Positions 10,753 through 64,000 of a stretch of DNA of 64,000 bases are shown piece after piece. The DNA comes from Candidatus Lloydbacteria bacterium RIFCSPHIGHO2_02_FULL_50_18 (GTDB lineage: Bacteria; Patescibacteriota; Minisyncoccia; Phycocordibacterales; UBA6899), in the NCBI GenBank assembly GCA_001821395.1, contig MHLM01000012.1, forward strand, positions 1 to 64,000, in the 5' to 3' direction. Each line of letters begins with the position of its first letter. Position 1 is the first letter of the stretch. A program made the translations under genes and the position numbers. The notes under the pieces were generated by a model, which was not told where the DNA came from, ran no database searches, and saw nothing but the letters and a program-made list of their open reading frames with translations.

Positions 10753-10764
10753 GATTTTGGATAG

Positions 10765-32150: not shown

Positions 32151-32310
32151 GGAACGAGCGTGATAAAAGGCCCTTCATAGGGCTTTTTATCACCGAGTGA
32201 CGACGTGCGGGAGGCTTTGCCTACGCGCACTAGGATGAACAACGAGCGTGATAAAAGGCCCTTCATAGGGCTTTTTATCACCGAGTGACGACGTGCGGGA
32301 GGCTTTGCCT
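32144..32310. repeat. tandem direct repeat (2 units of about 85 bp), each unit carrying a bidirectional terminator-like hairpin
   Basis: The unit CGCACTAGGA(TGAAC)AACGAGCGTGATAAAAGGCCCTTCATAGGGCTTTTTATCACCGAGTGACGACGTGCGGGAGGCTTTGCCTAC occurs twice. The hairpin is AAAAGGCCC-TTCAT-AGGGCTTTTT. Confidence 0.6.
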
Positions 32311-32496
32311 ACTCAGCAGTCATTTTTGATCAACTTGAGCTTTTGGTGTGCTGCTCACAAAGAATATACGTTTTTTATGAAATACAGGTAAATGCAAAGC
32401 ATTTTCTCCTTAAAAAATTAAACGTCGGCAATAAAATATTTTTTCTGAAATTCGTCAATAATTCCTAAAATATGTGATTTTAAGCATTTTTTGAAC

Positions 32497-32544
32497 TTAT
32501 CCACACCTGCTGTGCATAAAAACTGTGGATAAGTCTGTGGAAAG
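32497..32544. promoter_or_regulatory. cluster of DnaA boxes (three matches to TTATNCACA plus one 7/9) beside an AT-rich tract
   Basis: TTATCCACA at 32497-32505. TGTGCATAA at 32511-32519 and TGTGGATAA at 32524-32532 are reverse-complement boxes. TGTGGAAAG sits at 32536-32544. The stretch 32380-32490 is highly AT-rich. Confidence 0.5.
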
Positions 32545-32706
32545 TGGGTATAAAGGACATTATAATGACTTTTATTATGTCCTTTAGGAATTTGATTGAG
32601 GGCGGCGTTGTGCCGTTTCACGGAAAGCAAAGAATTAATGTTACTACGTAACAAATTAAGCAACAGTACAATATATCTGACTTGAATAACGTAAATTGGG
32701 TTTCAC

Positions 32707-33126
32707 ATGAAACTGAATAGTGAGAAACTTGAAAAAATGGGACAAATTACTGAAAAACAGCAAATAGGGAGGACCGGAGAGGATATTGCATGCTTGTTTC
32801 TCGTGAAACGTGGCTTTCAAATCGTTGAGCGTAATTTTTGGAAGAAGGTCGGTGAAATAGATATTATTTGCACAAAAGAGGAAAAATTTTACTTTGTTGA
32901 AGTAAAAACGATCGTAAAAAGAGGTGTTTCACGTGAAATGAGCGATAATTATCGTCCAGAAGATAATCTGCATGCTCAAAAGATCGTTCGACTTGGAAGA
33001 GCAATTGATATTTACCTTGAAGAGCAAAATATTGATGGTGATTGGGAAATACTTGGGGTCATGATAATTATTGACCCAAAGACTAAGATTGCAAAAGTGT
33101 CGCTTTTGGAAAATTTCGCCTGGTAG
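32707..33126 (+). CDS. YraN/UPF0102-family endonuclease
   Basis: GEDIACLFLVKRGFQIVERNFW...GEIDIICTKEEKFYFVEVKT matches the YraN signature. Confidence 0.7.
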   Translation: MKLNSEKLEKMGQITEKQQIGRTGEDIACLFLVKRGFQIVERNFWKKVGEIDIICTKEEKFYFVEVKTIVKRGVSREMSDNYRPEDNLHAQKIVRLGRAIDIYLEEQNIDGDWEILGVMIIIDPKTKIAKVSLLENFAW

Positions 33127-33403
33127 TCTTTTCACGTGAAACATAATGAACGAGAAGGATGACGGACCCAGGTCATAAGGTCGTTTTGTCTATTATGGGT
33201 GTTTCACGTGAAATCCTGCCTCAAATCTGTCTTGATCATCGCTTTGTTTTTGCGGTTTTATGTTTAGTGAAAGATAACTACAAAGTATAAATGAGCATAG
33301 CGCTGCTTGGGGATTACTCTTGAATTTTTTATGAGTATAATATGGAAAAGACAATCTTTATGAACAGGTTGCGTAGTTTAAAATTCTATGATATAATATT
33401 TCC

Positions 33404-33688
33404 ATGACTGATTCAAAACGCACCGAGTTGACACTGCATGCGATCGAGATCATTCACGGATCTCGTCTTTCAAGCGACGAGAAGATGATGCTTGAGGGGA
33501 GAATCCCGTTTATCTCTGATTCCATGCTTGAAATGTTTGTGCAGGTTTGCGATGAAGATCCGTTCGGCGTTGATGCAATCGTTAAAAATCTAAAGAAGAA
33601 ACTTGATGCAGGAGGGAATTTAAAACGATTGCATGAGATCGTAAAACAGGAGCGCAGGGAAATCGAAGATTCATTAGTCCTAGGATAA
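33404..33688 (+). CDS. hypothetical small protein
   Basis: 94-aa ORF, helical and charged, no motif. Confidence 0.45.
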   Translation: MTDSKRTELTLHAIEIIHGSRLSSDEKMMLEGRIPFISDSMLEMFVQVCDEDPFGVDAIVKNLKKKLDAGGNLKRLHEIVKQERREIEDSLVLG

Positions 33689-33698
33689 TAAATTTTAT

Positions 33699-34835
33699 AT
33701 GAGCGAGAAAATTCAGCAACAGGCAGAAGACGGAGAGGTGCAGCAAATTTCTTCCTTGACTGACATTGATTCAAGCACTAGGACGACAAGCACCGAGGAA
33801 GGTGATGGCGTTGTCACGGGTGATATCGGTACATCAGAAACGGTTTTTCCGCAGTTTGGTACCGTCGGAGATGTGGGAGAAACCTATGAATTGACGAGTA
33901 ATTTTTCCGAACTCGGTGATCCGATGCAAACTCTGGAACGATCACAACTACTTTGGGATGCACTTGCGCCGGAGGTTGTTGATCGACTCCTCGCAGATTC
34001 TCCGTTTAGCAGCGAGGAATTTTTGGCACTACCTGATGCAGATAAGAATGCCGCGCTTAATATCGTTGAAGATAGCGCAGTCGCTGCTGCCATGGCGCAG
34101 GAAGCCCCATCCGCCCGTGTCGCAGTGGTTTCATCAGAACTTACCCTAGCTGACGATCAGTCGATCGCGGCGAAGTCGATGAGGTGGGGTCGGTCTCTCG
34201 GTGCCGCATTAATAGTGGGGCTTGGCGCAACCCTTGCGCCGGGTGTTGCAAGTGCCGGTGGTCATGATGATAATATTTTCAAGTCATTTGGAGATAGCAT
34301 CGTGCATGGAGTTAAAAGAGATGTGCGTGAGGCGGGGAGAGATAGCGGCGCGGTGTTGGGAGGGGTTGTGCGCATCATCATCGATCGTTCGGTAAATCAG
34401 ACAGCAGTGCAAATACTTGGAGCGGCCGGAGTGCCGGCACAGCAGGCCCCGGAGGAAGTTGTTGTTGTGCCGAGAAGTGTTCCTGGCGCGTATGGCGGCG
34501 GATACGGAGGTCAATACGAAGTACGCGGACGGAGTGCCGGCGAATACGAAGCGCATGGATACGGCGGTCGCGGAATGGAGAGCAGTGAGCGTATTCGCAT
34601 AAAACAGGATATTAACCGTCTCGTGTCACAAGAGAGGGCACTCACAATTCAGGCGGAAAATTCACGGAGAACGGTAATGCAAACTTACGCTCAGTTGAGC
34701 GGGAGCAGAAATGACCTGAGTCTTCGGGCAAGATATGATGCAGAGCGGAGCCAGTACGAATATACCGTGGGAATGATTAGGACTCTCCGGGGTCAGATCG
34801 GCGACCTGAGCGGTAGACTCAGTCAGACGCCATAA
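33699..34835 (+). CDS. hypothetical protein, acidic N-terminal part, Gly/Tyr-rich segment and coiled-coil C-terminus
   Basis: 378 aa containing GAYGGGYGGQYEVRGRSAGEYEAHGYGGRG low-complexity and C-terminal heptad-like repeats. Confidence 0.5.
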   Translation: MSEKIQQQAEDGEVQQISSLTDIDSSTRTTSTEEGDGVVTGDIGTSETVFPQFGTVGDVGETYELTSNFSELGDPMQTLERSQLLWDALAPEVVDRLLADSPFSSEEFLALPDADKNAALNIVEDSAVAAAMAQEAPSARVAVVSSELTLADDQSIAAKSMRWGRSLGAALIVGLGATLAPGVASAGGHDDNIFKSFGDSIVHGVKRDVREAGRDSGAVLGGVVRIIIDRSVNQTAVQILGAAGVPAQQAPEEVVVVPRSVPGAYGGGYGGQYEVRGRSAGEYEAHGYGGRGMESSERIRIKQDINRLVSQERALTIQAENSRRTVMQTYAQLSGSRNDLSLRARYDAERSQYEYTVGMIRTLRGQIGDLSGRLSQTP

Positions 34836-35476: not shown

Positions 35477-36058
35477 GTGAAGAATCCCGAATACGAAGAA
35501 GGTGGACATGATGAAAAAAAAGACCTATTCCTTTTTGAGTTGGACGGGGATCTTTACGCTGTACCCGTTGAACTCGTCGATCGAGTAATGAAAATACCTC
35601 CGATCACTCCGATCCCCAATGCGCCGGCGGCAATTGTTGGTATCTTCCACTTGCGCGGAAAGGTCGTTTTGACCCTCGACCTCTCAAGTCGTATGGGTAT
35701 TTCCAGAATGAAGCCCTTAAGTCAAAACTTTCTTTTTGTCGTGCGGTATAAAAATGATCAGTTCGCCATTTTGATCGATACACCTAAGGTCATTGTACAC
35801 ATCCCAGCGAGCGAAATTCATCGTCCCGACTCCATTCTTACGGCCCGATTATCACCGCAATATGTCCAGGGAACCTTCATGTTTCAGGAGGTAACAAAAG
35901 TGAAAGTCCCTAATCATTCGATCTTCATCGAGCATATTGGTGGGGTTGACCGGAGGCCTGAAGAAATTCCACCATCACTTCGACCGGTACTCCTCCTTGA
36001 CCTTGAGCGAGTCCTTGACCAGGAGGATCTTCAGCACATGTTTATTTCACAGGAGTAA
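35477..36058 (+). CDS. cheW: chemotaxis coupling protein CheW
   Basis: CheW-like domain LFLFELDGDLYAVPVELVDRVMKIPPITPIPNAPAAIVGIFHLRGKVVLTLDL. Confidence 0.8.
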   Translation: MKNPEYEEGGHDEKKDLFLFELDGDLYAVPVELVDRVMKIPPITPIPNAPAAIVGIFHLRGKVVLTLDLSSRMGISRMKPLSQNFLFVVRYKNDQFAILIDTPKVIVHIPASEIHRPDSILTARLSPQYVQGTFMFQEVTKVKVPNHSIFIEHIGGVDRRPEEIPPSLRPVLLLDLERVLDQEDLQHMFISQE

Positions 36059-36079
36059 AGTCTATGGTACAATTTTAGT

Positions 36080-36442
36080 ATGGCAAAGGATATAAAAATA
36101 CTTCTTGTTGATGACTCAGCTTTTATGCGTAAGGTATTGCGTGACATCTTTGAAAGTGCCGGATATACGAATTTCATAGAGGCGGGAAATGGAACAGAAG
36201 CGATCCAAAAATTCAGAACAGAGAAGCCCGATTTTATCTTTCTTGATATCATCATGCCTGACGTGAACGGTATGGATGTACTTCGTGAGATCGGGAGCGA
36301 AGCGAAGGTCATCGTCGTATCGGCGGTTGGACAAAAGGATGTGATCGAGCAGGCAAAAACACTTGGTGCACTCGATTACATCGTAAAGCCTTTTGATCGT
36401 GATCAGGTGCTCGAAAAGGCCCAGCGGCATTTCGGTCAGTAA
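36080..36442 (+). CDS. cheY: chemotaxis response regulator CheY
   Basis: 120-aa single REC domain KILLVDDSAFMRKVL...DFIFLDIIMPDVNGMDVL...KP with the phospho-acceptor Asp. Confidence 0.85.
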   Translation: MAKDIKILLVDDSAFMRKVLRDIFESAGYTNFIEAGNGTEAIQKFRTEKPDFIFLDIIMPDVNGMDVLREIGSEAKVIVVSAVGQKDVIEQAKTLGALDYIVKPFDRDQVLEKAQRHFGQ

Positions 36443-36456
36443 GTAGCCCGACACGC

Positions 36457-37566
36457 TTGGTCAAATGTTTCATGAATAGTCAACCAACCGAAAAGATCCG
36501 TGTACTTATTGCAGATGATTCTTTTTTTATACGCACCTATCTTCAGGAGGTATTGAAAGCAAGTGAATCGATCGAAGTCGTTGGGCTTGCTTCATCGGGA
36601 ATCGAAGTAGTTGAGTTGGCACGTAAATTAAAACCCCATGTGATCACGATGGATTATCACATGCCGGGAAAAAATGGAATTGAAGCAACCGCAGAGATTA
36701 TGCGTGATGATCACCCGCTTCCGGCAATCATCATGCTTTCTGCTTTCGAGGGGGATGATGGCGAACATGTTCGAAAGACCCTTTTGTCCACCGGTGCCCA
36801 TGTGATCGAAAAACCGTCGGGAGAAGTGTCTCTTGATATAGAAAAGATTGCACGCACTATCGTACAACGGATCGAGGAGGTCGGGTGGACCGAAGTACGC
36901 ATGCGACACTCCTTTGCCCGCATGAAACACACTAGGGAACGAAGCCTAAATGGGCAGGATCGCACACTGCCATTTTCGGGGGTTGTCGTGATCGGTGCGT
37001 CTACCGGTGGGCCATCCTTGGTTGAAGGTTTGATCAAGTCGTTTGATCAGTATCACGGAATTTCGATCGTGATAGTTCAGCACATGTCTGCATATTTTAC
37101 TTCGCTGTTTGCTGAGCGGCTCGGACACGTTACCTCATTCCGTGTTTATGAAGCAAAGAGCGGAGACGTTCTTCTTCCGAACGATGCCCTCGTTGTCCCC
37201 GGTGGTTCTTTTTTGTTACCTACTTCGCTACCGGGTTCCCCGATGTGCAGCTTTGATATTATCGAAAGTGAAACTCATGCACCGGAGGCGCAGATCGACA
37301 ATTCGATGCGCGCGATAGCCGCTTGTTACCAGGGACCAATCGCCGGCGTATTACTTTCCGGAATGGGAAATGACGGAGCCGTCGGACTGCACGCACTGCG
37401 ATTGCGTGGAGGACTTTGTCTTGCGCAGGATCCGGAAACAGCACCGGTGCGTTCTATGCCGGCGCATGCGATTGATAGCGGTGAGGCAGTCGGAGTGCGG
37501 ATAGAGGATATCCCCGAACGTATCATGAGTCATTTTCGTCGACCATCACCGTCACGGCTTGCGTGA
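36457..37566 (+). CDS. cheB: chemotaxis protein-glutamate methylesterase CheB (REC + CheB_methylest)
   Basis: N-terminal REC (IRVLIADDSFFIR). C-terminal VVVIGASTGGPSLVEGLI, HMSAYFT and a GMGNDGAVG-like catalytic region. Confidence 0.85.
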   Translation: MVKCFMNSQPTEKIRVLIADDSFFIRTYLQEVLKASESIEVVGLASSGIEVVELARKLKPHVITMDYHMPGKNGIEATAEIMRDDHPLPAIIMLSAFEGDDGEHVRKTLLSTGAHVIEKPSGEVSLDIEKIARTIVQRIEEVGWTEVRMRHSFARMKHTRERSLNGQDRTLPFSGVVVIGASTGGPSLVEGLIKSFDQYHGISIVIVQHMSAYFTSLFAERLGHVTSFRVYEAKSGDVLLPNDALVVPGGSFLLPTSLPGSPMCSFDIIESETHAPEAQIDNSMRAIAACYQGPIAGVLLSGMGNDGAVGLHALRLRGGLCLAQDPETAPVRSMPAHAIDSGEAVGVRIEDIPERIMSHFRRPSPSRLA

Positions 37567-39250
37567 TATAATCAACCATATGCCGTTGAACATGAATAAG
37601 TATAAGGATCTCTTCTGCGCGGAAGCAGAGGAGCAGCTTGCAATACTCTCTCGTTTATTGCTTGTGCTTGAGAAATCAACAAACCACATGGAATACCATG
37701 AGGAGTTAATGCGCAGCGCACACACCATCAAGGGTGCCGCTGCGACAATGGGGTATGCTTCAATGGCAGAACTTGCTCATGCGGTTGAAGATATTTTTCA
37801 TGCAGCCGAGCGGGGTGCCCTTGTGGTTGATACACGGATCATTACACTATTGCTCTCAGCGATCGACCTCATGACGCATTCACTCGCCTCGATCAAGAGT
37901 AGTGACGTTGAACTTCCCAGTAAGGAAGTTGTTGATAAATTGAAAAAAATTCTTGAAGAAAATGCCGGTGTACAGACCGTTGTTCCGCAAGAAAAAACCG
38001 GTACTGATGTTCAGCAATTGCATATCGTCACTCCGGATACCATCAAGGTTAGTGTCGAAAAACTCGATACATTAATGGGGCTATTTGAGGAAATGTTGAT
38101 GCTCAGACTGAAGGCAAATTCAATGATCGAGCCTGCTGTGGAATTTGTTCGGACGACGACTGACCCTGTATTGAAGCAGCAATTATTCTTCATTGCCGAG
38201 CTCGAGGCATTGTTTGCAGAACTTGCGCGGCTCATGACTGAGCATCAAGACGCTCTTCTTGCTATTCGCCTCGTTCCCCTTGAACAGATCTTCGGCCAGT
38301 TCCCTCGTATGGTGAGGGATCTGTCGGTGCGAGAAGAAAAAGCGATCGAATTTTTTGTTGAAGGTGGAGATATCGCCTTAGACCGTACCGTGATCGAGGG
38401 CCTTGGCGGTGCACTAGCGCATCTTCTTCGCAATGCGGTCGACCACGGGATCGTTTCACGTGGAACAATATCTCTTTCGGCGGTAAGGGAAAAGGGACGC
38501 GTACGGATCTTTGTGGAGGATTCGGGCGCCGGGATCGATTATGGGCGGGTCAAAGAGGTGGCAACGGCTCAAGGGGTAGGCACGAGTGAAGAGATCGCAC
38601 TTATGGGAAACGAACAGCTCGCAGAATTATTGTTTCATCAAAATATGTCGACCAACAAAGTGGTGACGGATATTTCGGGAAGAGGAGTTGGTCTTGCTGC
38701 GGTGCGCGGGTTTGCTGAGGATGTCGGAGGACGCGTTGAAGTCATTTCTCCCATTCCGGAAATAGGGAAGGGGACCCGCTTTGTTCTTGATCTTCCGATC
38801 TCTCTTGCAACAGTGCGCGTGCTCGTCGTGCAAGCACGAGGGTACACATTTGCGATACCTTTCGATCATGTCATTAAAACACTTCACTTTGAAACGCGGG
38901 AGGTCGGTGACGCGGCGCATCAGGAAACACTTTTTCTCGACGGGACATTGTTGCCGCTGATGCATCTCGATAAAATTCTCAAACTATCATACGGTTCCGC
39001 TCCATCTCCGGAACATTCTCGAACCGCGGTGTTGATCCGAACGGGAGAGAAAACATTTCTTCTCGAAGTAGATGCGTGCACGGGTGAACAAGACCTATTG
39101 ATCAAATCGCTTCCTCCGGTTCTCCGTAATAATAAGGGATTTTCAGGCTCAGCGCTTCTCCCGGACGGACGAACAATATTATTACTCGATGGCCATGGTT
39201 TACTCATACAAGCAATAGACGATATACTGAACACCCAATCATTATCTTAA
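37559..39250 (+). CDS. cheA: chemotaxis histidine kinase CheA
   Basis: HPt motif HTIKGAAATMGY, HATPase_c HLLRNAVDHGI ... GRGVGLAAV, and a C-terminal CheW-like domain. Confidence 0.85.
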   Translation: MRDIINHMPLNMNKYKDLFCAEAEEQLAILSRLLLVLEKSTNHMEYHEELMRSAHTIKGAAATMGYASMAELAHAVEDIFHAAERGALVVDTRIITLLLSAIDLMTHSLASIKSSDVELPSKEVVDKLKKILEENAGVQTVVPQEKTGTDVQQLHIVTPDTIKVSVEKLDTLMGLFEEMLMLRLKANSMIEPAVEFVRTTTDPVLKQQLFFIAELEALFAELARLMTEHQDALLAIRLVPLEQIFGQFPRMVRDLSVREEKAIEFFVEGGDIALDRTVIEGLGGALAHLLRNAVDHGIVSRGTISLSAVREKGRVRIFVEDSGAGIDYGRVKEVATAQGVGTSEEIALMGNEQLAELLFHQNMSTNKVVTDISGRGVGLAAVRGFAEDVGGRVEVISPIPEIGKGTRFVLDLPISLATVRVLVVQARGYTFAIPFDHVIKTLHFETREVGDAAHQETLFLDGTLLPLMHLDKILKLSYGSAPSPEHSRTAVLIRTGEKTFLLEVDACTGEQDLLIKSLPPVLRNNKGFSGSALLPDGRTILLLDGHGLLIQAIDDILNTQSLS

Positions 39251-39255
39251 GTATT

Positions 39256-39921
39256 ATGCCATCACTATTTCAACTCACAGAAAATGATAATGACCAGTTA
39301 CGAGAACTTGTAAATATCGGAGTTTCGCATGCCGGAGACACGTTGTCTTTGATGATGGGGAAACATATCACGGTAAGTATTCCGGGGATATCCGTACAAA
39401 GCGCATCCACTACGCTCTGTTTGCCGCAAGGTGATGAGGATCTCACCGTCTCAGTGTTGCTCCGCGTATACGGGTTAATTAATGGATATGTCTTTTTGTT
39501 TTTTCCGCGCACTGCCGCTCTCCGCTTGCTGCAAGTACTTTCAGGAAAGAGTATCAGCGATGTGCGCGCACTCGATCGATTCGACCGGTCAATATTTCAA
39601 GAACTAGGAAACGTGATCACCGGCGGTACGTTGAACGGACTATCAAAATTTCTCCACATCGAGATGCTTCACTCCGTCCCCAACGTTGTCGTGGATATGA
39701 GTGGTGCAATATTCAATTCCTTATCAGCATCGATGGTGAAGCAGCACGAGGAATTTCTTTCTCTTGATGTTTCGATCTGCATCGATTCTCCATCGAGCTC
39801 TGCTGTGTGTGTTGATAGCGAGGCCTCCGCTGCGCGCATGTATCTTTTTATGGGACCGGATGCCGTGGAGAGGATCCTTGCGATCACCAATGCGATGATC
39901 GGCAAAAAAAATGACCTATGA
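39256..39921 (+). CDS. cheC: CheC-family CheY-P phosphatase
   Basis: Two CheC-type motifs (NIGVSHAGDTLSLMMG and ELGNVITGGTLNGLS). Confidence 0.65.
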   Translation: MPSLFQLTENDNDQLRELVNIGVSHAGDTLSLMMGKHITVSIPGISVQSASTTLCLPQGDEDLTVSVLLRVYGLINGYVFLFFPRTAALRLLQVLSGKSISDVRALDRFDRSIFQELGNVITGGTLNGLSKFLHIEMLHSVPNVVVDMSGAIFNSLSASMVKQHEEFLSLDVSICIDSPSSSAVCVDSEASAARMYLFMGPDAVERILAITNAMIGKKNDL

Positions 39922-40406
39922 GCAATACTATCGAAATACGGATTGCTGAGCTTTTTGTTGGTGATCAGTCGAATGTCATCATCACAAAGGGGGTCGGCTC
40001 ATGTATCGTGATCGTCCTCTATGATCGCCTCGTGCGCATCGGAGGGATGGCACATGCGATACTTCCAGAAGCGAGCATCGAGCATGCAGAGGTTGGTGTG
40101 CATGTGGATTTAGGAAAACGATTTGTGAAGTATGCGGATCTTGCAGTGGACACATTGATCGCTGATATGGAGTCATTGGGTGGAACACGGCAGCATCTTG
40201 TCGCAAAATTGATCGGAGGTGCGCATATGTTTGCGTTGCTTGAAGGTGATACGTTTGGTATCGGGTGGGAAAATACAGAAAGTGCACGCGCGCGATTGGT
40301 CCACCATGGAATACCGATTGAAACGGAGGTGGTAGGCGGAACGGTCGGTCGGAATGTACGTCTTGATTGTGCAACAGGCATCGTCGAGATTATCACGAAG
40401 GTTTAA
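39918..40406 (+). CDS. cheD: chemoreceptor glutamine deamidase CheD
   Basis: GVGSCIVIVLYDRLVRIGGMAHAILP matches the CheD catalytic Cys/His region. 4-nt overlap with cheC. Confidence 0.8.
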   Translation: MSNTIEIRIAELFVGDQSNVIITKGVGSCIVIVLYDRLVRIGGMAHAILPEASIEHAEVGVHVDLGKRFVKYADLAVDTLIADMESLGGTRQHLVAKLIGGAHMFALLEGDTFGIGWENTESARARLVHHGIPIETEVVGGTVGRNVRLDCATGIVEIITKV

Positions 40407-55518: not shown

Positions 55519-55944
55519 TCAATGCTTGATCCCGGTTGCGTGATTCTTCTCCGATTTTTTGGCTGAACCATTCTTCTGCACTACGAATTCGGGTGCAAAT
55601 ACGAAATGTTCCCGCTTTTCACCGCATCTCGGACATTTGTACGCGACGCCATAGCTGCGGACATGAGTGTTGAGTCTGTCGGGTCTTCCTCCGAGCCACT
55701 TCAGCTCATATTCTGTATCCGGAGGCAGCGCACCGGAGACCCCAGAGATCACCCCCCTCGCGATGTAGTGCTTATTACTCATAAGGCACTCGCGTTGCTC
55801 CAATATCGTGACCTTGTCCCCGACCTTTGCAACGGCGGCTTCGACCGGCAGTTTTTCGCATGCCTCGCACGCTTTTTTGGATGAATACGCCGTTTTACAC
55901 GTTTTGCAAATATAGGTTGTGACGATCTTCCTCTTCGCTTTCAT
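55519..55944 (-). CDS. zinc-ribbon hypothetical protein (start at MKAKRKIV with AAGGGGGG ribosome-binding site)
   Basis: CKTCKTAY...CEACEK and CPRCGEKREH cysteine pairs. Confidence 0.5.
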   Translation of the reverse strand: MKAKRKIVTTYICKTCKTAYSSKKACEACEKLPVEAAVAKVGDKVTILEQRECLMSNKHYIARGVISGVSGALPPDTEYELKWLGGRPDRLNTHVRSYGVAYKCPRCGEKREHFVFAPEFVVQKNGSAKKSEKNHATGIKH

Positions 55945-56041
55945 GTTCTGACCCCCCTTATGATGAACGACTTTTTGCATCATACACGCAATTATCGGTG
56001 TTGCAACGGGTAATCCTTGATATAATGAATCAAGCAAATTT

Positions 56042-57793
56042 ATGCTCGTCCAAGAAAGCAAATTAAAGAAATTTATTCTCGATTCCGGGCTCACATCACG
56101 GTCGGAGATCCTTGCCGCCGAGAAAGATGCCGAGAAGGAAGGTGGGAGTATCGGAGATGTATTAGTGAAGCAGGGCAAAATATCCTCTGATGACCTGCGC
56201 CGTGTCCAGGCATATATTCTCGGCATTCCATTTGTGGATCTGCGCGGGCAGAAGATCGATTTTGCCATCCTTTCATTGATCCCCGAGCCGATTGCACGCA
56301 AGCACAATATCGTCGCATTTCGAAAAACGGATTCCGGTCTTGAGGTCGCAATGCTTGACGTTGATGATCTTGAGGCGATCGACTTTGTGCGTAAAAAGGT
56401 GGGGTTACGTATTCTCCCGCGATTGACGGATCAAGAGTCGGTAAAGGGATCATTGCTGCAGTATCAAAAATCTCTGAAGGCGGAGTTTGGTGACCTCATT
56501 CAGCAAGAAGCACAGTCGATACAAATGCTTGCCGAAGATGAAGATAATCCTGCGTCAGAAAAAGATCTGAAGAAACTCGCGGAAGACCTTCCTGTGGTGC
56601 GTATTGTTGATACGCTCTTGAATCATGCCATCATTCAGTCAGCGTCCGACATTCATATTGAACCGATGGAAAATCAATTGCTGGTGCGCTATCGCATCGA
56701 CGGTATTCTTCACGATGCCATGGTGCTTCCACGAAATTCTGCACCGGGTATTACCGCGCGTATCAAGGTGCTTTCGAATTTAAAATTGGATGAAAAGCGG
56801 TTGCCTCAGGACGGACGGTTCAAGATCCAATTGAACAATGAGAAGGTCTCTTTTCGTGTCTCGACGCTTCCGACACATCATGGAGAGAAGACGGTTATGC
56901 GTCTTTTGCGCGAATCATCAGGAGGTTTCTCGCTTGAATCATTGGGTTTTCACGGGCAGGGACTTGAGGCGCTCCATTCGGCGATGAATCAGCACGTCGG
57001 AATGCTGCTCGTGACCGGGCCGACCGGTTCCGGTAAGACAACGACGCTCTATACATTGCTCGATATCCTGAATACTCCCGATGTGAACATCTCCACCATT
57101 GAGGATCCCGTTGAGTATCAGATGCCGCGTATCAATCAGACACAAGTGAAGCCGGAGATCGGCCTCACCTTTGCCATGGGGTTACGCGCACTCCTTCGCC
57201 AGGACCCCGATATCATCATGGTGGGAGAGATCCGCGACGGTGAGACAGCCTCACTTGGAATCAATGCCGCGCTTACGGGACATTTAGTGCTGTCGACCCT
57301 GCATACGAATTCCGCCGCCGGAACATTACCGCGTTTCATTGATATGGGCGCAGAGCCGTTCCTCATCATCTCAACGGTGAACGTCATCATCGGACAACGG
57401 CTCGTACGTAAGTTGTGCGCCACGAAAGAGAAATATAATCTCTCAAAGGCGGAGCTTGATGCATTAGGGAAAAAGGCAAACCTCGATATCGTCCTCGCTT
57501 CACTCAAGGAGGAGGGGATAGTAGCAAAAGATATAGCGTGGGCGGATGTCCCGTTTTATAAAGCGAAACCTTCCCCTGAATGTGATGAGGGCTATAAGGG
57601 GCGTCTGAGTATTCATGAAGTGCTACACATGTCGTCGGGGATCCGTGAACTTGCCGTCGCAAGTGCATCTGCAGAAAAGATCGAGATACAGGCGCGCAAA
57701 GAAGGGATGCTGACGATGCTTGAAGACGGGATATTCAAGGCAGCCCAAGGACTCACGTCCATCGAAGAAGTCTATAGAGTAGTCAGCGAGTGA
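56042..57793 (+). CDS. pilB: type IV pilus assembly ATPase PilB (GspE family)
   Basis: N-terminal T2SSE_N-like domain. Walker A LVTGPTGSGKTTTLY, Asp box, Walker B, His box. C-terminal tetracysteine-like CxxC region. Confidence 0.9.
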   Translation: MLVQESKLKKFILDSGLTSRSEILAAEKDAEKEGGSIGDVLVKQGKISSDDLRRVQAYILGIPFVDLRGQKIDFAILSLIPEPIARKHNIVAFRKTDSGLEVAMLDVDDLEAIDFVRKKVGLRILPRLTDQESVKGSLLQYQKSLKAEFGDLIQQEAQSIQMLAEDEDNPASEKDLKKLAEDLPVVRIVDTLLNHAIIQSASDIHIEPMENQLLVRYRIDGILHDAMVLPRNSAPGITARIKVLSNLKLDEKRLPQDGRFKIQLNNEKVSFRVSTLPTHHGEKTVMRLLRESSGGFSLESLGFHGQGLEALHSAMNQHVGMLLVTGPTGSGKTTTLYTLLDILNTPDVNISTIEDPVEYQMPRINQTQVKPEIGLTFAMGLRALLRQDPDIIMVGEIRDGETASLGINAALTGHLVLSTLHTNSAAGTLPRFIDMGAEPFLIISTVNVIIGQRLVRKLCATKEKYNLSKAELDALGKKANLDIVLASLKEEGIVAKDIAWADVPFYKAKPSPECDEGYKGRLSIHEVLHMSSGIRELAVASASAEKIEIQARKEGMLTMLEDGIFKAAQGLTSIEEVYRVVSE

Positions 57794-58069
57794 CGGGCAT
57801 TCTCGCGGATTATTTCGTTGAAAGCTTGCGAGGCTCATTCACCGTACTCAGAAGTACGCCTCATATCGCTTCGCGCTTTCGCCTCGTACTCCATCGAGAA
57901 TACCAATCACTCTATTCGGCTAAATCTGGCGTCTATATTTGTTAGCGGCCCACTGCCCGTCCTTCCTAGCTTTCGTTTCGCATCAAGATCATTCACTCAC
58001 TCGGGAACAGCGAATGAATGATTTTGCGTTTTATTTGTGAAAAGAGTAGAACTACAAAGGAACAATTGA

Positions 58070-58375
58070 ATGAAATTTCACATGAAACTTATTCGTGACA
58101 AGATACCCGGCATCGCTCATGCAAAGGGTGAACAGCTGCAGTGCCATAAGGCGGATCCCGCAGAATATCGCTATCATCTTCGAGAAAAGATTCTTGAAGA
58201 GGTTCATGAATTTCGTGAGTCTGGAGAGGCAGAGGAATTAGCTGATATTCTGGAGGTTGTACGGGCGATAGCAAATGAGCGCGGTTTATCGATGCGCAAT
58301 CTTTATCTCCTTCGTGATAAAAAGCGCCGAGCACGGGGAGGATTTGACGGACGGATCATTTGGCAAAATGAGTAG
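58070..58375 (+). CDS. MazG-like/PRA-PH-superfamily nucleotide pyrophosphohydrolase
   Basis: MKLIRDKIP...EELADILEVVRAIANERGLS...RGGFDGRI. 101 aa. Confidence 0.55.
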   Translation: MKFHMKLIRDKIPGIAHAKGEQLQCHKADPAEYRYHLREKILEEVHEFRESGEAEELADILEVVRAIANERGLSMRNLYLLRDKKRRARGGFDGRIIWQNE

Positions 58376-58527
58376 ATCGAGCAAGTCGGCTTGTAGGATC
58401 GGACATCGTGTCCGGTCTTTTGTTATTGCCCATGAGAATGCCATGAGTTTCGGTCACGACCATGCGCGAGTAAGGAGTGTGGAAAAGCGTGTCACGCAGA
58501 CTATTTTCCTATATAATAAAATGAACT

Positions 58528-59745
58528 ATGCCCAAGTACACCTATAAAGCACAATTGCTCGCAACTGGTAGTGAGATGGAAGGAACCGCAGAAGCAGCGG
58601 ATAAATTTGAACTTGCAAAGAATATAAAGATGGAAGGAAAACTTCTTCTTAGCGCAACCGAGCTCTCCGATTCACCCTGGAACATGGACAAGATCAACGC
58701 CTTGCTGACGAAGGTTGACCTGCGTGAAAAGATCTTGTTTGCGCGCAATATGGCGACGATGATCCAGGCAGGACTTCCTCTTTCACGAGCATTGCAGATC
58801 TTTGTGAAACAAACGAAGAATCCGAAGTTTCGTACGGTATTGAGCTCCATCATCGAAGACATTAATAAAGGCACTTCTTTTTCCGATGCCATGGGAAAAT
58901 TCGAAGATATTTTTCCGGCCGTCTTCATTTCAATGGTACGTGCAGGTGAGGAATCCGGCGGACTCGTTGAGGCGCTCAATGTTGTTGGCGGACAGATGGA
59001 AAAGACCTATACGATAAAGAAAAAAGTAAAAGGCGCAATGATGTATCCTGGGATCGTCCTCATCGTCATGCTTGCGGTGGGGGTGCTGATGATGATCTAC
59101 GTTGTTCCCGGACTTGCGGCAGGGTTCAAGGAGGCCGGCGCTGAATTGCCCCCCCTGACAAAGGCCATCGTGGCTATAAGTGATTTTCTGCAGAATGACC
59201 TCCTCCTCGCATTGCTCGGTGTCGCCGGTGTCACTGCAGCATTCTGGTGGTACAAGCGCACGACGCTCGGTTCTCGTTCCATTGACTGGCTAGTAATCCG
59301 CCTCCCTGTTTTTGGTAAATTGATCAAGGAGTTCAACTCCGCACTTGCTACTCGTACGCTGTCATCACTCATATCTGCGGGGGTGGATATCGTCCATGCG
59401 ATCGAGATCACCCAAGACGTGCTCGGTAATATCTTTTATAAAGAAACGCTAGAACAGGCGAAGATTAATGTGCAGAAAGGAGTCCCTCTTTCCCAGGTGT
59501 TCATCGAAAATAATGAGATCTACCCGGTCATGGTGGGAGACATGATGGAGGTTGGGGAAGAGACCGGACAGCTCTCGGGAATGCTGCTCAAGATCGCGAC
59601 GTTCTATGAAGAAGAGGTTAGTCAGGCGACCGAGGACATGTCAAAGCTCATCGAACCGCTGCTCATGGCCATCATCGCCGTCTTTGTCGGCATTTTCGCG
59701 GTCGCAATGATCACCCCCATGTACTCGATGATGCAAAATATCTAA
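58528..59745 (+). CDS. pilC: type IV pilus inner-membrane platform protein PilC (GspF family)
   Basis: Two T2SSF repeats and 3 TM helices. 405 aa. Confidence 0.9.
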   Translation: MPKYTYKAQLLATGSEMEGTAEAADKFELAKNIKMEGKLLLSATELSDSPWNMDKINALLTKVDLREKILFARNMATMIQAGLPLSRALQIFVKQTKNPKFRTVLSSIIEDINKGTSFSDAMGKFEDIFPAVFISMVRAGEESGGLVEALNVVGGQMEKTYTIKKKVKGAMMYPGIVLIVMLAVGVLMMIYVVPGLAAGFKEAGAELPPLTKAIVAISDFLQNDLLLALLGVAGVTAAFWWYKRTTLGSRSIDWLVIRLPVFGKLIKEFNSALATRTLSSLISAGVDIVHAIEITQDVLGNIFYKETLEQAKINVQKGVPLSQVFIENNEIYPVMVGDMMEVGEETGQLSGMLLKIATFYEEEVSQATEDMSKLIEPLLMAIIAVFVGIFAVAMITPMYSMMQNI

Positions 59746-59885
59746 GCATTTATTTGTATTATCGTTTCATGAGGTGTGACGACGGAGGATGCATGCGGAG
59801 GGGGCGGACATGCTGCGGTGCTTCGGTCTCGCGGTGATCGTTGGATTTTCGGCAAACGAAAATATTTTAGGCGACATTTCGAATT

Positions 59886-60359
59886 ATGCTCAATTCACAA
59901 CACACAACTCGCGGAGTGACACTCGTTGAAATATTGCTGGTGATCGCAATCACGATACTGCTTGCGTCTGTCGTGCTTTCTTCGTTTGGACAATATCGGT
60001 TGCGGCAGAGTCTCGCAGGTTCGATCGAAAGCGTGCTCGCGGCAATAAGCGCGGCACATCTGAATACCATTTCTTCAAAAAATGACAGTCCTTATGGGGT
60101 CAATCTCAAGCCTGACGAGGCGATCTATTTTGCCGGTGATTCTTATCCGGGAGATACCGATCCCGCTAATATTCATTACGTGCTACCGGCGACGATCGAG
60201 ATCGCAAATGTCAGTCTTAATGGTGGTGATACAAAAATATATTTTAAGAAGCTTATGGGGGCTACCGACAATTATGGAACATTTGATATTCGCGCAAAAA
60301 CAAGCACCGGCGTAGGTACGACAGTGACGATCTATCAGACCGGGGCGACATCCATCTGA
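59886..60359 (+). CDS. type IV pilin-like protein (prepilin N-terminal motif)
   Basis: TTRG|VTLVEILLVIAITILLASVVL is a class III signal with Glu+5. Confidence 0.75.
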   Translation: MLNSQHTTRGVTLVEILLVIAITILLASVVLSSFGQYRLRQSLAGSIESVLAAISAAHLNTISSKNDSPYGVNLKPDEAIYFAGDSYPGDTDPANIHYVLPATIEIANVSLNGGDTKIYFKKLMGATDNYGTFDIRAKTSTGVGTTVTIYQTGATSI

Positions 60360-60373
60360 TTGTTCATATAAAT

Positions 60374-60943
60374 ATGATGAAACTCAAACACACAAAGACA
60401 GCAGTAAGAGCAGCACTGAATGGAGGCAGCTTCTTCCTCACTTGCCGTCCGTCGCGATGCCGTCGAGGTCCGACATCGGGATTTTCCATCGTTGAGATCA
60501 TTCTTGGTATCGGAATGCTGACAACGGCACTCGTTGCTGTTTCAGCGTACTATATAAGGCTGCTCACCGTCAGTGAGTTGACTACCGAGCACATTCAGTC
60601 AGGGTTCTTGCTTGAGGAGGGGGTTGAGGTTATGAAGCTGTTGCGTGACGAGAGTTGGTCGACAACAATCGCCCCACTTTCCACTACGACGACGTACTAT
60701 TTGTCCTGGAATGGAACGAAGTGGACAGCGACAACAACAAAGCAGGTCATAGAGAATATTTTCACACGCTCATTGGAGATCAGTGACGTGAATCGTGACA
60801 ATGTAACCTACAATATTGATCCTACGGGTACATATGATCCTGGAACTAAGAAGGTCACCGTGAGTATTGGATGGCAGAGAAGAGGCGGGAACGTCGCTAC
60901 CGACACGGCGCAAACTTACATCATGAACCTTTTTAATAATTAG
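60374..60943 (+). CDS. type IV pilin-like protein (long leader)
   Basis: PTSG|FSIVEIILGIGMLTTALVAV. Confidence 0.7.
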   Translation: MMKLKHTKTAVRAALNGGSFFLTCRPSRCRRGPTSGFSIVEIILGIGMLTTALVAVSAYYIRLLTVSELTTEHIQSGFLLEEGVEVMKLLRDESWSTTIAPLSTTTTYYLSWNGTKWTATTTKQVIENIFTRSLEISDVNRDNVTYNIDPTGTYDPGTKKVTVSIGWQRRGGNVATDTAQTYIMNLFNN

Positions 60944-60944
60944 T

Positions 60945-61478
60945 ATGATCTTTTTACGAAACAATTCGGACAGGACACAGAGCAGGGGCTTCACTCTTGT
61001 TGAAATGGTCCTTTATATTGGACTGTTCGTATTGCTTTCAACGATGTCGATGACTGCGCTCTTTCAGACGGTTAGGGCTTTCAACGAACTACGGGTATCC
61101 CGCGATATCGATGATTCTGCAGTAAAGATCATGGAGCGACTGACGCGCGATATTAAGAGCTCGACATCTGTCGATCTTGCAAACAGCACCTTTGGGTCAT
61201 CTCCGGGAAGGTTGACGCTATTAACGGTCAATGCCTCAGGAACACCCCTCACCGTCGAATACTATGTCTCAGGTTCCATATTGAGCATAAGAGAGAACGG
61301 CGTCGACAGAGGAGCGCTTATGTCTGCTCGTACGAACATCGATGCATTGGTATTTTATTACATCAGCTCGGGCCCAACATTTGGAATAAAAACAGAATTG
61401 CACATTTCATCGACGCGCGGAAAGGCCGGCGAGGTGGATGATTTCTACGATACCAGTGTCCTACGGGGATCGTATTAA
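60945..61478 (+). CDS. type IV pilin-like protein
   Basis: QSRG|FTLVEMVLYIGLFVLLST. Confidence 0.75.
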   Translation: MIFLRNNSDRTQSRGFTLVEMVLYIGLFVLLSTMSMTALFQTVRAFNELRVSRDIDDSAVKIMERLTRDIKSSTSVDLANSTFGSSPGRLTLLTVNASGTPLTVEYYVSGSILSIRENGVDRGALMSARTNIDALVFYYISSGPTFGIKTELHISSTRGKAGEVDDFYDTSVLRGSY

Positions 61479-61483
61479 CGCTT

Positions 61484-63340
61484 ATGAAGATATTTTTTAT
61501 GCAAATTCGCTCACGATCCGCACATATGTTTTCTCATGCAAGTCAGACGAGGGGTGCCGCGCTCATTATCTTGGTCTTCTTTTTTATCTCGATATCTCTC
61601 GCGATCATTCAAACCGCTACCATCGGTGCTCTTGTCGAACTTCGGACCTATCGCACGATTGCGAGCTCTAAGGCCGCGTACGCCGCCGCCGAGGCGGGCG
61701 TTGAAGATATTTTTTACCGCACGATAAATAGTAAGCCCGTCCCAGTAAGCGAGTCACTCACATTGGACGGGGCAACGGCCAGCGTGGGAGTGGCGCCTAT
61801 TTCGGCGTCCCAGAGTGATGTGTATGTCGTCGGCACGGCTGGTAACGGCGAAGTACGCAAGCTGTATCTGTCGATATCGAAGAACAGAACGGCTTCGTTT
61901 TCCTACGGCGCACAGGTCGGAGAGGGCGGGATTATCATGGATAACAACGTGGATATCGATGGTATGGGTCTTGCAAATGGTGATATTTACTCGAACGGTC
62001 AGGTTGTCGGCGGTACGAATGTCCACGTGATGGGTAACGTTATTTCATCATCCAGTTTGTTCGCTGACCAGATCGCAAGTTCCACGTTGTGTGAGAGTGA
62101 TGAGGCTGTCGGCAAAACAAATCCGCGCATTGATTATGCGCAAAGCTTTATGCTCTCTACTACGACGGCGAGCATTGACCTTGCCAGTGTCTCGCTCTAC
62201 ATCAAGCGGAATAATGGTCCGACCGGCGCGAATATTCGCATTACCGCAGATGATAGCGGTAAGCCGTCAACGGTCGCTCTCGCTACTCAACCGCTTCCAT
62301 ATTCAAGTGTCGCCACTACTTACGGATGGGTGACGGTCAGCTTTGCGACACCCGCCACGCTTGACCCCGGGACATTGTACTGGATCGTTCTTGACGCGAC
62401 GCAGAATGCGTCAAAGTATTGGTATTGGTGCAGGAGTAACGCCGACAATTATGCAACCGGTACCCCGGCCTACAAGCTCGACAGTTCTACGTCCGGTGCG
62501 TGGACGGCGGTATCGGGTGATATGGCGTTTGGAACGACATTTGGCGGCGGTATCAGTAAGATCGATGATGTTGACGTCCTTGGTATCGCTAAGGCCGATA
62601 CGATAACAGATTCGCATATTCACAGTGATGCTTACTACAAGACCATCTCCGATTCGACCGTCGACGGGGCGTCCTATGCCGGAACACCGACTCCTCCATA
62701 TGTCCCACTTCCGATCTCGAGTTCGACGATCACACAGTGGGAGGGCGATGCCGCTAGTGGTGGTATCATAAGCGGTGATTGTGGCGTTGGCGGCATCGCG
62801 GCATGCAACACGTTTCCCCTCTCTCTCGGGCCGAAGCGGATCAACGGCAACCTCGTCGTTGATAATGGAGCAGTGCTGACCGTCACTGGGACGATCTATG
62901 TTACCGGGAATGTCGTCATTGATAATGGCGGATCGATCCGTTGCGCATTCGGCTTCATGGGTAATAGCTGTATCATCATCGCAGATGGCCATATCAGTGT
63001 ATCCAACAATGCGACCTTCGGCGGATCCGGAGTGTCCGGAAGTTTTATCATGTTACTGTCAACAAAGGAGGGCTGTCTGGGGACAAGCGGCACCGGCTGC
63101 GCTACAAATTTTAGCGCAATAGGAATAAAGAATAATGTTACCGGTGCGCTCTTCTATACCAGTAGATCGCTTATCGATATTTCGAATCAGGCTACCGTGA
63201 CTGCGGTTGTCGGGTATATGCTTATGCTGCAAAACGGATCCGGAATCATGTATGATCCGCTGGTTGCGAACATCTCATTTGCGCCGGCCACGAGTGGAGT
63301 AACCGGCGCCTGGAATGCAGTTCGCTGGAATGAATATTGA
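61484..63340 (+). CDS. large pilus-associated protein with degenerate pilin-like N-terminus (candidate tip/adhesin component)
   Basis: N-terminal TRG|AALIILVFFFISISLAI is hydrophobic and pilin-like but lacks Glu+5. The 600-aa Gly/Thr/Ser-rich beta-type body follows three pilin genes. Confidence 0.5.
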   Translation: MKIFFMQIRSRSAHMFSHASQTRGAALIILVFFFISISLAIIQTATIGALVELRTYRTIASSKAAYAAAEAGVEDIFYRTINSKPVPVSESLTLDGATASVGVAPISASQSDVYVVGTAGNGEVRKLYLSISKNRTASFSYGAQVGEGGIIMDNNVDIDGMGLANGDIYSNGQVVGGTNVHVMGNVISSSSLFADQIASSTLCESDEAVGKTNPRIDYAQSFMLSTTTASIDLASVSLYIKRNNGPTGANIRITADDSGKPSTVALATQPLPYSSVATTYGWVTVSFATPATLDPGTLYWIVLDATQNASKYWYWCRSNADNYATGTPAYKLDSSTSGAWTAVSGDMAFGTTFGGGISKIDDVDVLGIAKADTITDSHIHSDAYYKTISDSTVDGASYAGTPTPPYVPLPISSSTITQWEGDAASGGIISGDCGVGGIAACNTFPLSLGPKRINGNLVVDNGAVLTVTGTIYVTGNVVIDNGGSIRCAFGFMGNSCIIIADGHISVSNNATFGGSGVSGSFIMLLSTKEGCLGTSGTGCATNFSAIGIKNNVTGALFYTSRSLIDISNQATVTAVVGYMLMLQNGSGIMYDPLVANISFAPATSGVTGAWNAVRWNEY

Positions 63341-63442
63341 TGGAGCTCGTAAGTGTTTTAGCGCGGAGTATCCCGGAGGCGTCTTTATTTGGTGTTTACG
63401 TTCATCGCCCGTTATACTGCAGATGAACATTCATATTGCATC

Positions 63443-64000
63443 ATGAAGTCATTTTTATCTTTTAACCAGCGACAAGACCAGGGGCTATCACTTATTGAGA
63501 CAGTGATTGGCGCTGCGCTTTTTGCTTTTATTTCGATGATGCTCGCTACTACCTATCAACGGGTCTTTGTCGTTGCGCGGGCGGCGCAGGAACGAGTGGA
63601 TGCGATCGCGCTTGCGAACGCGCAATTTGAAATTGTGCGTAATCTTTCTTATGCAAATGTCGGTACGGTGGGTGGAATTCCCAATGGGGTACTTCCGCAG
63701 GTGAGGACACTCATGAGCGGTGGAAAAACCTTCGTAGCTACGACGACGGTGCGAAATATTGACCTGCCGTTTGATGGTACTGCGGGGGGTGTTCCGGACG
63801 ACCTCTCTCCCGCAGACAATAAGCTCGTGGAAATGGAAGTGACCTGTACAAGTTGCAAAAATTTTCGACCGCTCATCTTCACCACCTCCGTCGGTCCGAG
63901 AGACCTGGAGAATGTATCAACGAATGGCTCCCTCTTTGTGAGGGTGCTTGATGCGAGCGGTGCTCCTGTCCCGGGTGCTACTGTTAAAGTAGTGAACAAT
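63443..64000 (+). CDS. type IV pilin-like protein, 3'-truncated by the window end
   Basis: MKSFLSFNQRQDQG|LSLIETVIGAALFAFISMM. The ORF is open to the end of the window. Confidence 0.6.
   Translation, partial: MKSFLSFNQRQDQGLSLIETVIGAALFAFISMMLATTYQRVFVVARAAQERVDAIALANAQFEIVRNLSYANVGTVGGIPNGVLPQVRTLMSGGKTFVATTTVRNIDLPFDGTAGGVPDDLSPADNKLVEMEVTCTSCKNFRPLIFTTSVGPRDLENVSTNGSLFVRVLDASGAPVPGATVKVVNN

Follow-up and report, generated by a model that had tools for sequence, protein, structure and literature searches.

A modular GspK-like pilin as the predicted tip subunit of a type IV pilus encoded by Candidatus Lloydbacteria

What an uncultured groundwater member of the Patescibacteria carries at the end of its type IV pili is a question raised by one end of a 64,000-nt contig stretch of Candidatus Lloydbacteria (the whole of this stretch is referred to below as the window). 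Between positions 56042 and 64000, where all named open reading frames (ORFs) lie on the forward strand, the genes for a pilus assembly ATPase (pilB) and an inner-membrane platform protein (pilC) are followed by a run of prepilin-type genes, the fourth of which encodes a bulky protein, and a MazG-like gene stands between pilB and pilC. In Patescibacteria, type IV pili are believed to play a central part in locating and retaining hosts as well as in DNA uptake. To our knowledge, however, experimental information on these pili comes almost exclusively from the Saccharibacteria, while the Paceibacteria-type lineages, which are large and wholly uncultured, are known from annotation only. The reading favored here, to which we would give a probability of about two-thirds, is that the region encodes the assembly core together with the priming and tip module of a type IVa-like pilus, that the bulky fourth protein is a tip adhesin, and that the MazG-like gene is a passenger. 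A preliminary description of the window, made from its sequence alone, had already called the region a type IV pilus locus, and this is borne out by the presence of T2SSE and T2SSF genes followed by prepilin-type ORFs.

The fourth protein (termed K, for its place in the H-I-J-K gene order considered below) had been presented as a 618-amino-acid (aa) giant; an ORF of that length is present, but public gene calls start the protein at Met15 (position 61526), giving 604 aa instead of 618. Its N-terminus, TRG/AALIILVFFF (the slash separates residues -1 and +1), keeps the glycine and has isoleucine at +5. Among the homologues, Gly-1 is found in 63 of 63 ungapped sequences, and position +5 is occupied by Ile, Leu, Met, Thr, Phe, or Ala and never by Glu in 67 sequences, so that the degenerate pilin N-terminus lacking Glu5 that had been noticed in the giant (TRG/AALII) is a trait shared across its family. 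The accompanying statement that the protein has no recognizable domain did not survive closer analysis. The NCBIfam model choice_anchor_R (NF041539) matches residues 212-344 with 43.3 bits against a cut-off of 30 (a cut-off also reached in L008 and in a paralogue in L010, L-numbers denoting the contigs or loci of relatives used for comparison), and the predicted structure has a beta-solenoid of the ComZ/ice-binding type on a GspK-like pilin domain. Database names of K homologues include 'choice-of-anchor R domain-containing protein', 'Tfp pilus assembly protein PilX', and 'pilus assembly PilX N-terminal domain-containing protein'. Some members of the family match Pfam PilX_N and one matches NCBIfam GspK; the window protein has no NCBIfam GspK match and no Pfam match, N_methyl included.

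The AlphaFold2 model of K, built with 67 homologues, is confident, with a mean predicted local distance difference test (pLDDT) score of 91.7, and consists of an N-terminal helix (residues 9-67), a four-stranded pilin sheet (75-118), a run of short strands forming a solenoid, and a C-terminal strand (597-603), with a beta-sandwich (jelly roll) at about 203-340 that interrupts the solenoid. The best matches of the solenoid are non-enzymatic ice-binding proteins and ComZ, and the structural matches of the model also include tapirins (at 9-10) as well as PHR domains, carbohydrate-binding modules (CBMs), and lectins (at 7-11). For the jelly roll, Foldseek returned the baseplate protein of phage phi812, the lectin-like domain of Cwp84, and several CBMs. 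The structural matches are thus non-enzymatic solenoids, pilins, lectins, and CBMs, and a clear unrelated enzymatic homologue, which would have spoken against a pilus role from the outset, is not among them. The resemblance to ice-binding proteins is one of fold, as K gave no Pfam match to the corresponding family (DUF3494) at E<=0.1. As modeled, K is a GspK-like pilin domain combined with a beta-solenoid of the ComZ/ice-binding-protein type and a lectin/CBM-like jelly roll, and the model contains no alpha-helical insertion domain such as that of GspK. K has both a GspK-type pilin fold and the last place in an H-I-J-K set; it would work like GspK without being a GspK orthologue. Its composition (42.7% Gly, Ala, Ser, and Thr combined), its eight cysteines at conserved positions, and its acidity (isoelectric point (pI) 4.7; 29 Lys and Arg versus 44 Asp and Glu residues) fit an extracellular protein.

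The locus follows the same H-I-J-K order as the gspH-I-J-K genes of type II secretion, the fimU-pilV-pilW-pilX genes of Pseudomonas, and the Thermus cluster pilA1-pilA2-pilA3-comZ. Of the two proteins named in the initial proposal, PilY1 does not belong to the pilins, and ComP is a small pilin that binds DNA. That proposal, of a tip-located adhesin or a PilY1/ComP-like priming complex, was supported as to a tip-located subunit of the priming complex and imprecise as to its class, which is that of GspK, PilX, and ComZ (Glu5-less and last in H-I-J-K). The closest counterpart in architecture is ComZ of Thermus thermophilus HB27 (PDB 6QVI; pilA1-pilA2-pilA3-comZ-pilA4), which carries a large ice-binding-protein-like solenoid on a GspK-like pilin domain, has been proposed to sit at the tip, binds the neighboring GspI-like PilA2, is not a PilD substrate according to PilFind, and is too bulky for the body of the filament (PMC6561018). 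K resembles ComZ in lacking a canonical PilD signal, in being encoded by the fourth gene after three small minor pilins, and in its bulk, on which the assignment of both proteins to the tip is based. In contrast to ComZ, K is acidic and has a jelly roll inserted in its solenoid, and the two have no detectable sequence similarity; a sequence-level link of K to ComZ or to any other solved protein was rejected, the matches of its profile in the PDB being at chance level. The settings differ as well, since no major pilin gene follows K in the window (a GspG-like pilin does so in the relative L011) and the host has no outer membrane or secretin for the pilus to pass.

Compared with GspK/XcpX and the FimU-PilV-PilW-PilX set of P. 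aeruginosa, the locus has the same gene order, an H protein with the FimU/GspH fold, and presumably the same capping of a priming complex by its last member. However, the helical insertion domain of GspK is replaced in K by the solenoid and jelly roll, the NCBIfam models for GspK, GspI, and GspJ are not reached by the proteins encoded here, and the locus encodes no PilY1 partner. Within the Patescibacteria, Nanosynbacter lyticus TM7x (Saccharibacteria) has PilX1, with a jelly roll, and PilX2, with a propeller, both large and not predicted to be PilD substrates; PilX2 is a proposed tip adhesin that efficient host binding requires, and this binding is disturbed by sugars (PMC11623550). PilX1 and PilX2 are, like K, the largest pilins of their loci and have lectin-like accessory domains, but these extra domains are C-terminal, no solenoid has been reported for them (the comparison with K is by description only), and the K family comes from Paceibacteria-type lineages that have no cultured member. 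The grafting of an adhesion module onto a pilin or a pilus-associated protein is also the principle behind the bimodular minor pilin PilB of Streptococcus sanguinis and the tapirins encoded at the pilus locus of Caldicellulosiruptor. The module of the S. sanguinis protein is a vWA domain, whereas K is a three-part protein with a slot holding a variable number of modules, and the tapirins, unlike K, are not pilins.

That K has such a slot emerges from the family as a whole, which comprises 1137 representatives at E<=1e-30 among 1.84 billion clusters at 50% identity. When domain coordinates are taken from the family profile, the short forms of 416-428 aa cover profile positions 1-179 and 337-596, i.e., they retain the pilin domain and the solenoid and lack the block (180-337) that corresponds to the jelly roll. 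At the other extreme, the 909-aa K of L047 has three tandem copies of the jelly roll (versus one in the window protein). In the K proteins of L050, L053, and L082 (965-988 aa), the same position holds an unrelated insert of about 340 aa. L054 has a jelly-roll-like piece on its I-position pilin (364 aa, L054 6340-7434) and a K protein without that block, an arrangement suggestive of modules being transferred from one subunit of the tip complex to another. From these sequence comparisons, the solenoid looks like a scaffold with a single slot for variable modules, and because the content of this slot varies (none, one, or three jelly rolls, or another insert), the jelly roll is read as the ligand-binding head of a putative tip adhesin. 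K proteins with the ComZ-like architecture are auto-annotated in databases, and no description of the family was found in the literature searched, which likewise gave nothing relevant on ComZ together with Patescibacteria or on Lloydbacteria.

The association of K with the pilus genes is conserved over a wide range of lineages. A genome scan restricted to one genome per species, using an alignment of 27 closer K sequences, returned 72 loci, all but two of which are titled Patescibacteria or just 'bacterium' (including Lloyd-, Yonath-, Giovannoni-, Niyogi-, Zambryski-, Staskawicz-, Nealson-, and Terrybacteria), and profiles of PilB, PilC, H, I, J, K, and the MazG-like protein were mapped on all of them. 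The pilB-pilC-H-I-J-K block, with its H-I-J-K run, occurs in 62 of the 72 species-level loci, and most of the others are cut by contig ends. Directly after K, about 36 loci (including a complete Nealsonbacteria chromosome) have pilM, often with pilN, while the Lloyd/Yonath clade has TIM-PGK after the pilin block instead of pilM. Given the conserved H-I-J-K run and the linkage to pilM, the K gene is integral to the pilus operon of this class. Further downstream in L008, L010, and L011, TIM-PGK is followed by HIT-RecJ-RNase H-ComEC, 4-8 kb from the pilin block, and a RecJ gene is present in L001 (20144-21811).

The small proteins encoded ahead of K had been described as prepilin-type, and this holds on the strength of their G/xxxxE motifs, their hydrophobic stretches, and an alignment to position 1 of solved pilins. 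A relaxed prepilin pattern applied to all six frames of the 64 kb gave four matches only, all within the pilus block (TRG/VTLVE, TSG/FSIVE, SRG/FTLVE, and DQG/LSLIE), a clustering that is far from chance. In the corresponding proteins of 157, 189, 177, and 603 aa, the motif G/[VFL][TS][LI][VI]E precedes about 20 hydrophobic residues, and Glu5 is invariant within the H, I, and J homologue families. The suggested check against Pfam N_methyl produced matches near the threshold, but all of the pilins remained below it (16-20 bits versus a gathering score of 21.2). For H, the family profile aligns its predicted mature end with the first residue of numerous solved pilins (E as low as 6e-7), and the globular fold behind the pilin helix is that of GspH/FimU, on which ground H was rejected as the major pilin. 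FimT-like DNA binding by H was also rejected, as the C-terminal GRxR motif is absent from its sequence. By the standard of type IVa-like prepilins, the leader of I is long: it has 35 residues (60374-60481), and its reading frame offers no other start codon; the I-pilin leaders of relatives are shorter, at about 3 to 23 residues. I is conserved between H and J in relatives, gave only chance-level matches in a PDB profile search and no NCBIfam match, and may be placed in the GspI/PilV class by analogy of position only. J matches Pfam N_methyl at 6.4e-4, below the cut-off, and its best NCBIfam matches are weak (ComGF, 0.011; GspJ, 0.014). Its profile aligns with residues 1-86 of Thermus PilA4 (E 5e-7). 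This alignment makes J a type IV pilin and does not separate a major from a minor one, so that J is formally still a candidate for the major pilin.

The two assembly genes are assigned with greater ease. PilB matches Pfam T2SSE at 2.3e-125 and MshEN at 3.8e-13, and PilC matches T2SSF at 7.6e-61 across two stretches, indicating that the ATPase and platform core of a type IV filament is encoded here. In NCBIfam, PilB scores 545 bits with the PilB model (TIGR02538) and 524 bits with GspE, and PilC matches the PilC/GspF models at 2.8e-91 and 5.4e-86; because all of these are under the equivalog cut-offs, the filament subtype is not settled by these models. The MshEN region has a weak match to a cyclic-di-GMP motif (NCBIfam, E 5.6e-4, below cut-off). 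A tetracysteine zinc motif is usual in PilB/GspE ATPases; the PilB of the window has two cysteines only and hence cannot carry it. Divergent from pilB and 58 bp away, a 154-aa zinc-ribbon-like ORF (55519-55983, reverse strand) occupies the same place in L001 and L006; a longer, 262-aa reading of it would overlap pilB. As had been stated at the outset, the window contains no pilM, pilN, pilO, pilQ, or prepilin peptidase gene: a Pfam scan of about 45 ORFs in the 64 kb found none of PilD, PilM, PilN, PilO, PilQ, and PilT, phmmer searches with PilM, PilN, and PilO of a relative gave no match in the window at E<=1, and a PilB profile matched pilB alone and no further ATPase such as PilT. The features of the region are listed in Table 1.

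Table 1. Coordinates of genes and predicted signals in the pilus region of the window.
Feature	Position	Strand	Basis or remark
pilB, type IV pilus assembly ATPase with N-terminal MshEN-type domain, 583 aa	56042..57793	+	Pfam
MazG-superfamily (all-alpha NTP pyrophosphohydrolase) gene, 101 aa	58070..58375	+	Homologue names, motif; start perhaps Met5 at 58082
Terminator-like hairpin, 11 pairs, T-rich tail, just 3' of the MazG-like gene	58395..58419	+	Consensus scan only
Best sigma-70-like promoter match in the region, GTGTCA-17-TATAAT, 11 bp upstream of pilC	58489..58517	+	Consensus scan only
pilC, inner-membrane platform protein, 405 aa	58528..59745	+	Pfam T2SSF, two stretches
H-position minor pilin, 157 aa, FimU/GspH fold, TRG/VTLVE	59886..60359	+	
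I-position minor pilin, 189 aa, TSG/FSIVE, 35-aa leader	60374..60943	+	Motif, hydrophobic helix, position
J-position minor pilin, 177 aa, SRG/FTLVE	60945..61478	+	Motif, position, weak hidden Markov model matches
K-position modular tip pilin (predicted), 604 aa, TRG/AALII	61526..63340 (618-aa ORF opens 61484)	+	
Start of 603-aa pilin, DQG/LSLIE, CarboxypepD_reg/Ig-like domains	63443..64000, leaves window	+	First gene of the putative paralogous I'-J'-K' set

The gene that leaves the window after K can be followed in L001, which is identical to the window across 56042-64000 (0 mismatches). Past the window edge (L001 11918-15923), L001 encodes the 603-aa pilin, a 252-aa pilin (G/FTLIE), and a 490-aa Glu5-less protein (SRG/GILIQ) without a family match, and then TIM and PGK. 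The best-matching profile is that of I for the 603-aa protein (E 3e-6), that of J for the 252-aa protein (4e-5), and that of K for the 490-aa protein (3e-4), and the N-termini of the two K-type proteins (604 and 490 aa) align. The three genes are accordingly read as a second, probably paralogous I'-J'-K' set, and L004 has it as well. Tip sets are duplicated, or K genes arranged in tandem, in L004, L010, L019, L027, and L039.

In the proposed mechanism, which follows the established priming model for minor pilins, H, I, J, and K would assemble in the membrane through their N-terminal helices, with K on top of the complex, since a Glu5-less subunit has no subunit above it with which to form a salt bridge. 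The complex would prime the polymerization of a major pilin encoded elsewhere and would end up at the tip of the pilus, where the solenoid would act as a rigid scaffold displaying the jelly roll as the ligand-binding head. The I'-J'-K' set would probably be used by the same PilB/PilC machine. In view of the type of module, the variable slot, the acidic charge, and the precedent of TM7x, the most likely ligand of K is a glycan on the surface of a host or partner cell; the main alternative is DNA, given ComZ and the RecJ and ComEC genes near the locus in relatives. A bolder version of this proposal holds that K is a scaffold for swappable modules that chiefly determine attachment, and that two tip complexes (H-I-J-K, and I'-J'-K' with its Ig-rich I') served by one PilB/PilC machine give rise to two functionally different pili; this version is tentative, and we regard it as possible rather than probable.

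Several observations weigh against the proposal. The window encodes no major pilin, prepilin peptidase, PilM, PilN, PilO, or PilT, so that a complete machine can only be presumed for the genome. The structures of K are predictions, the suggested relationship to ComZ is one of fold only, and the profile of the 67 K homologues finds no ComZ in the PDB even at E<=10, with two chance-level matches as its only yield. The ComZ-type topology, in which the solenoid would be inserted before the last pilin strand, is deduced from the order of secondary-structure elements in the model. The labels I and J are positional and are accompanied by very weak hidden Markov model matches. The domains of K are about equally conserved within the 600-aa subfamily and the jelly roll is not hypervariable, from which it follows that the ligand of this subfamily is probably generic and not specific to a strain or host. 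Lastly, the promoter and terminator assignments are consensus matches only, and promoter-like sites are no more numerous than in shuffled sequence.

The identity of the 101-aa protein encoded between pilB and pilC was assessed from its relatives, as it has no Pfam, NCBIfam, or PADLOC match. Its homologues are named 'house-cleaning noncanonical NTP pyrophosphatase (MazG superfamily)', distant ones carry PF01503, and eight aligned homologues share a KLIRDKIP N-terminus that is conserved in the family and the invariant residues E43, E44, E47, E56, and D59 (an EExxE...ELAD motif). A profile of the family gave eight weak matches in the PDB (E 0.013-0.6), of which seven are HisE/PRA-PH, MazG-like proteins, or MazZ. 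The protein thus likely belongs to the MazG superfamily of all-alpha nucleoside triphosphate (NTP) pyrophosphohydrolases, and the description of the inserted gene as MazG-like is upheld by the homologue names, by PF01503 in distant homologues, and by the acidic motif. It is like the small (about 100 aa) MazG/HisE-superfamily enzymes in size, N-terminus, and motif, but it differs from them in reaching no Pfam or NCBIfam threshold, and its location in a pilus operon is incidental. The genes pilB and pilC are adjacent (gap of 150 bp or less) in 42 of 54 loci, and gaps of more than 400 bp are found in the window genome, L004 (=L018), L010 (=L024), L015, L028, L036, L051, L064, and also L006. The MazG-like gene is the sole gap ORF common to different genomes, four related ones, and the other gap ORFs are mutually unrelated; because of this distribution, the gene is most likely a sporadic passenger in an insertion-tolerant gap and not a component of the pilus. 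The unusual placement that had been pointed out is thus real in the window, but the conservation check indicates that it is not a feature of the operon. The gene most likely encodes a house-cleaning nucleotide pyrophosphatase that is independent of the pilus. The pilB-pilC junction is itself a recurrent insertion site, holding 1.2-4.7 kb of mutually unrelated ORFs (L006 5252-10000; L015, L028, L036, L051, and L064), and in L006 these include a NUDIX hydrolase (weak PADLOC match) and a TrmB-type regulator with weak CasR/Csa3-like matches. A defense island in the gap was considered and rejected, as PADLOC gave no match for the MazG-like protein or for the neighboring gap ORFs of 203 and 221 aa.

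The alternative to a passenger is that the MazG-like protein is a pilus accessory, tuning for example the nucleotide or second-messenger pool seen by PilB. The MshEN domain of PilB, with its weak and sub-threshold cyclic-di-GMP motif match, would suit such a role, as would the position of the gene on the same strand between pilB and pilC with no opposite-strand gene intervening in the window and its recurrence in four related genomes. However, the gene is absent wherever pilB and pilC abut and from the close relatives L015 and L051, which have other gap contents; in L006, 4.7 kb of genes on the opposite strand stand between it and pilB; and in L004 and L010 unrelated genes share the gap. With a terminator-like hairpin of its own in the window and family homologues in archaea and proteobacteria that have no evident pilus context, an accessory role is highly improbable. 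Nor is it at all probable, if only slightly less remote, that K is no pilus subunit and instead a surface adhesin or enzyme held in the membrane by a plain signal-anchor helix, with pilin neighbors by chance. The missing Glu5 and N_methyl match, and the frequency of beta-solenoids in tailspikes and depolymerases, could be cited for such a protein, and ComZ and TM7x PilX1 and PilX2 are likewise not predicted PilD substrates. Against it stand the retention of Gly-1 in all 63 homologues, the PilX_N and GspK matches within the family, the place after three pilins in 62 of 72 loci with pilM often next, and the non-enzymatic nature of the best solenoid matches (ice-binding proteins and ComZ).

The question of what kind of filament is built leads to two further alternatives. 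A type II secretion-like pseudopilus, in which the filament would be a piston that exports proteins and not an external pilus, would account for minor pilins of the pseudopilin H and K types and for GspE/GspF models that score nearly as well as those of PilB/PilC. Yet GspC, GspD, GspL, GspM, and a secretin are encoded neither in the window nor in the related loci, relatives have pilM-pilN, no role in a piston is known for a 60-kDa tip subunit that carries an adhesin-type module, and Patescibacteria are described as carrying pili and as lacking an outer membrane and PilQ (PMC6744442; PMC11623550), all of which makes a pseudopilus the least credible of the readings considered. A competence pilus, in which K is a ComZ-like tip receptor for extracellular DNA, deserves more weight and is nevertheless unlikely. 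Lacking nucleotide synthesis, Patescibacteria would import DNA through ComEC. Pili and competence genes have both been described as widespread among them (PMC6744442); the operon is ordered as pilA1-pilA2-pilA3-comZ, RecJ, RNase H, and ComEC lie downstream of it in three relatives (RecJ also in L001), and the even conservation of the K domains fits a universal ligand such as DNA. On the other hand, TIM-PGK and other housekeeping genes intervene between the operon and these competence genes, K is acidic, the two DNA-binding lysines of ComZ cannot be mapped on K without sequence similarity, and the H pilin lacks the FimT-like GRxR motif. The extra module of K is moreover of the lectin/CBM type, and the variation of slot modules in number and kind between lineages is hard to explain for a DNA receptor.

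Elsewhere in the window, a chemotaxis cluster (35477-40406, forward strand) encodes CheW, a CheY-like receiver (36080-36442), CheB, CheA, CheC/CheX, and CheD, and no flagellar gene was found among the window ORFs scanned; the cluster might steer pilus-based movement. A literature search on chemotaxis in Patescibacteria found nothing relevant. At the opposite end (129-12464, reverse strand), a run of large ORFs, mostly without a Pfam match, includes a VirB4/TraG-like P-loop ATPase (3096-4895), a PrgI-family protein (5563-6057, just under the cut-off), and a TSP3-repeat protein (10765-11763), and looks like a type IV secretion or conjugation-like cluster of the Gram-positive type. A tyrosine recombinase gene (27007-27948, forward strand) and, a few kb away, a patch of low guanine-cytosine content (32001-34000; 0.40 versus about 0.48) next to tRNA genes may be the remnant of an integrated element.

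The available loci indicate that the Paceibacteria-type lineages share a compact pilB-pilC-H-I-J-K(-pilM-pilN) operon, and the pilus operon described here is typical of the Patescibacteria. Removal of the MazG-like gene as a lead for pilus function and the assignments proposed here do not overturn current views of these organisms. They do point to K as a concrete candidate for the host- or ligand-recognition subunit, in the form of a protein that can be expressed. If the modular scheme is true, K would be the chief factor deciding what these uncultured episymbionts adhere to.

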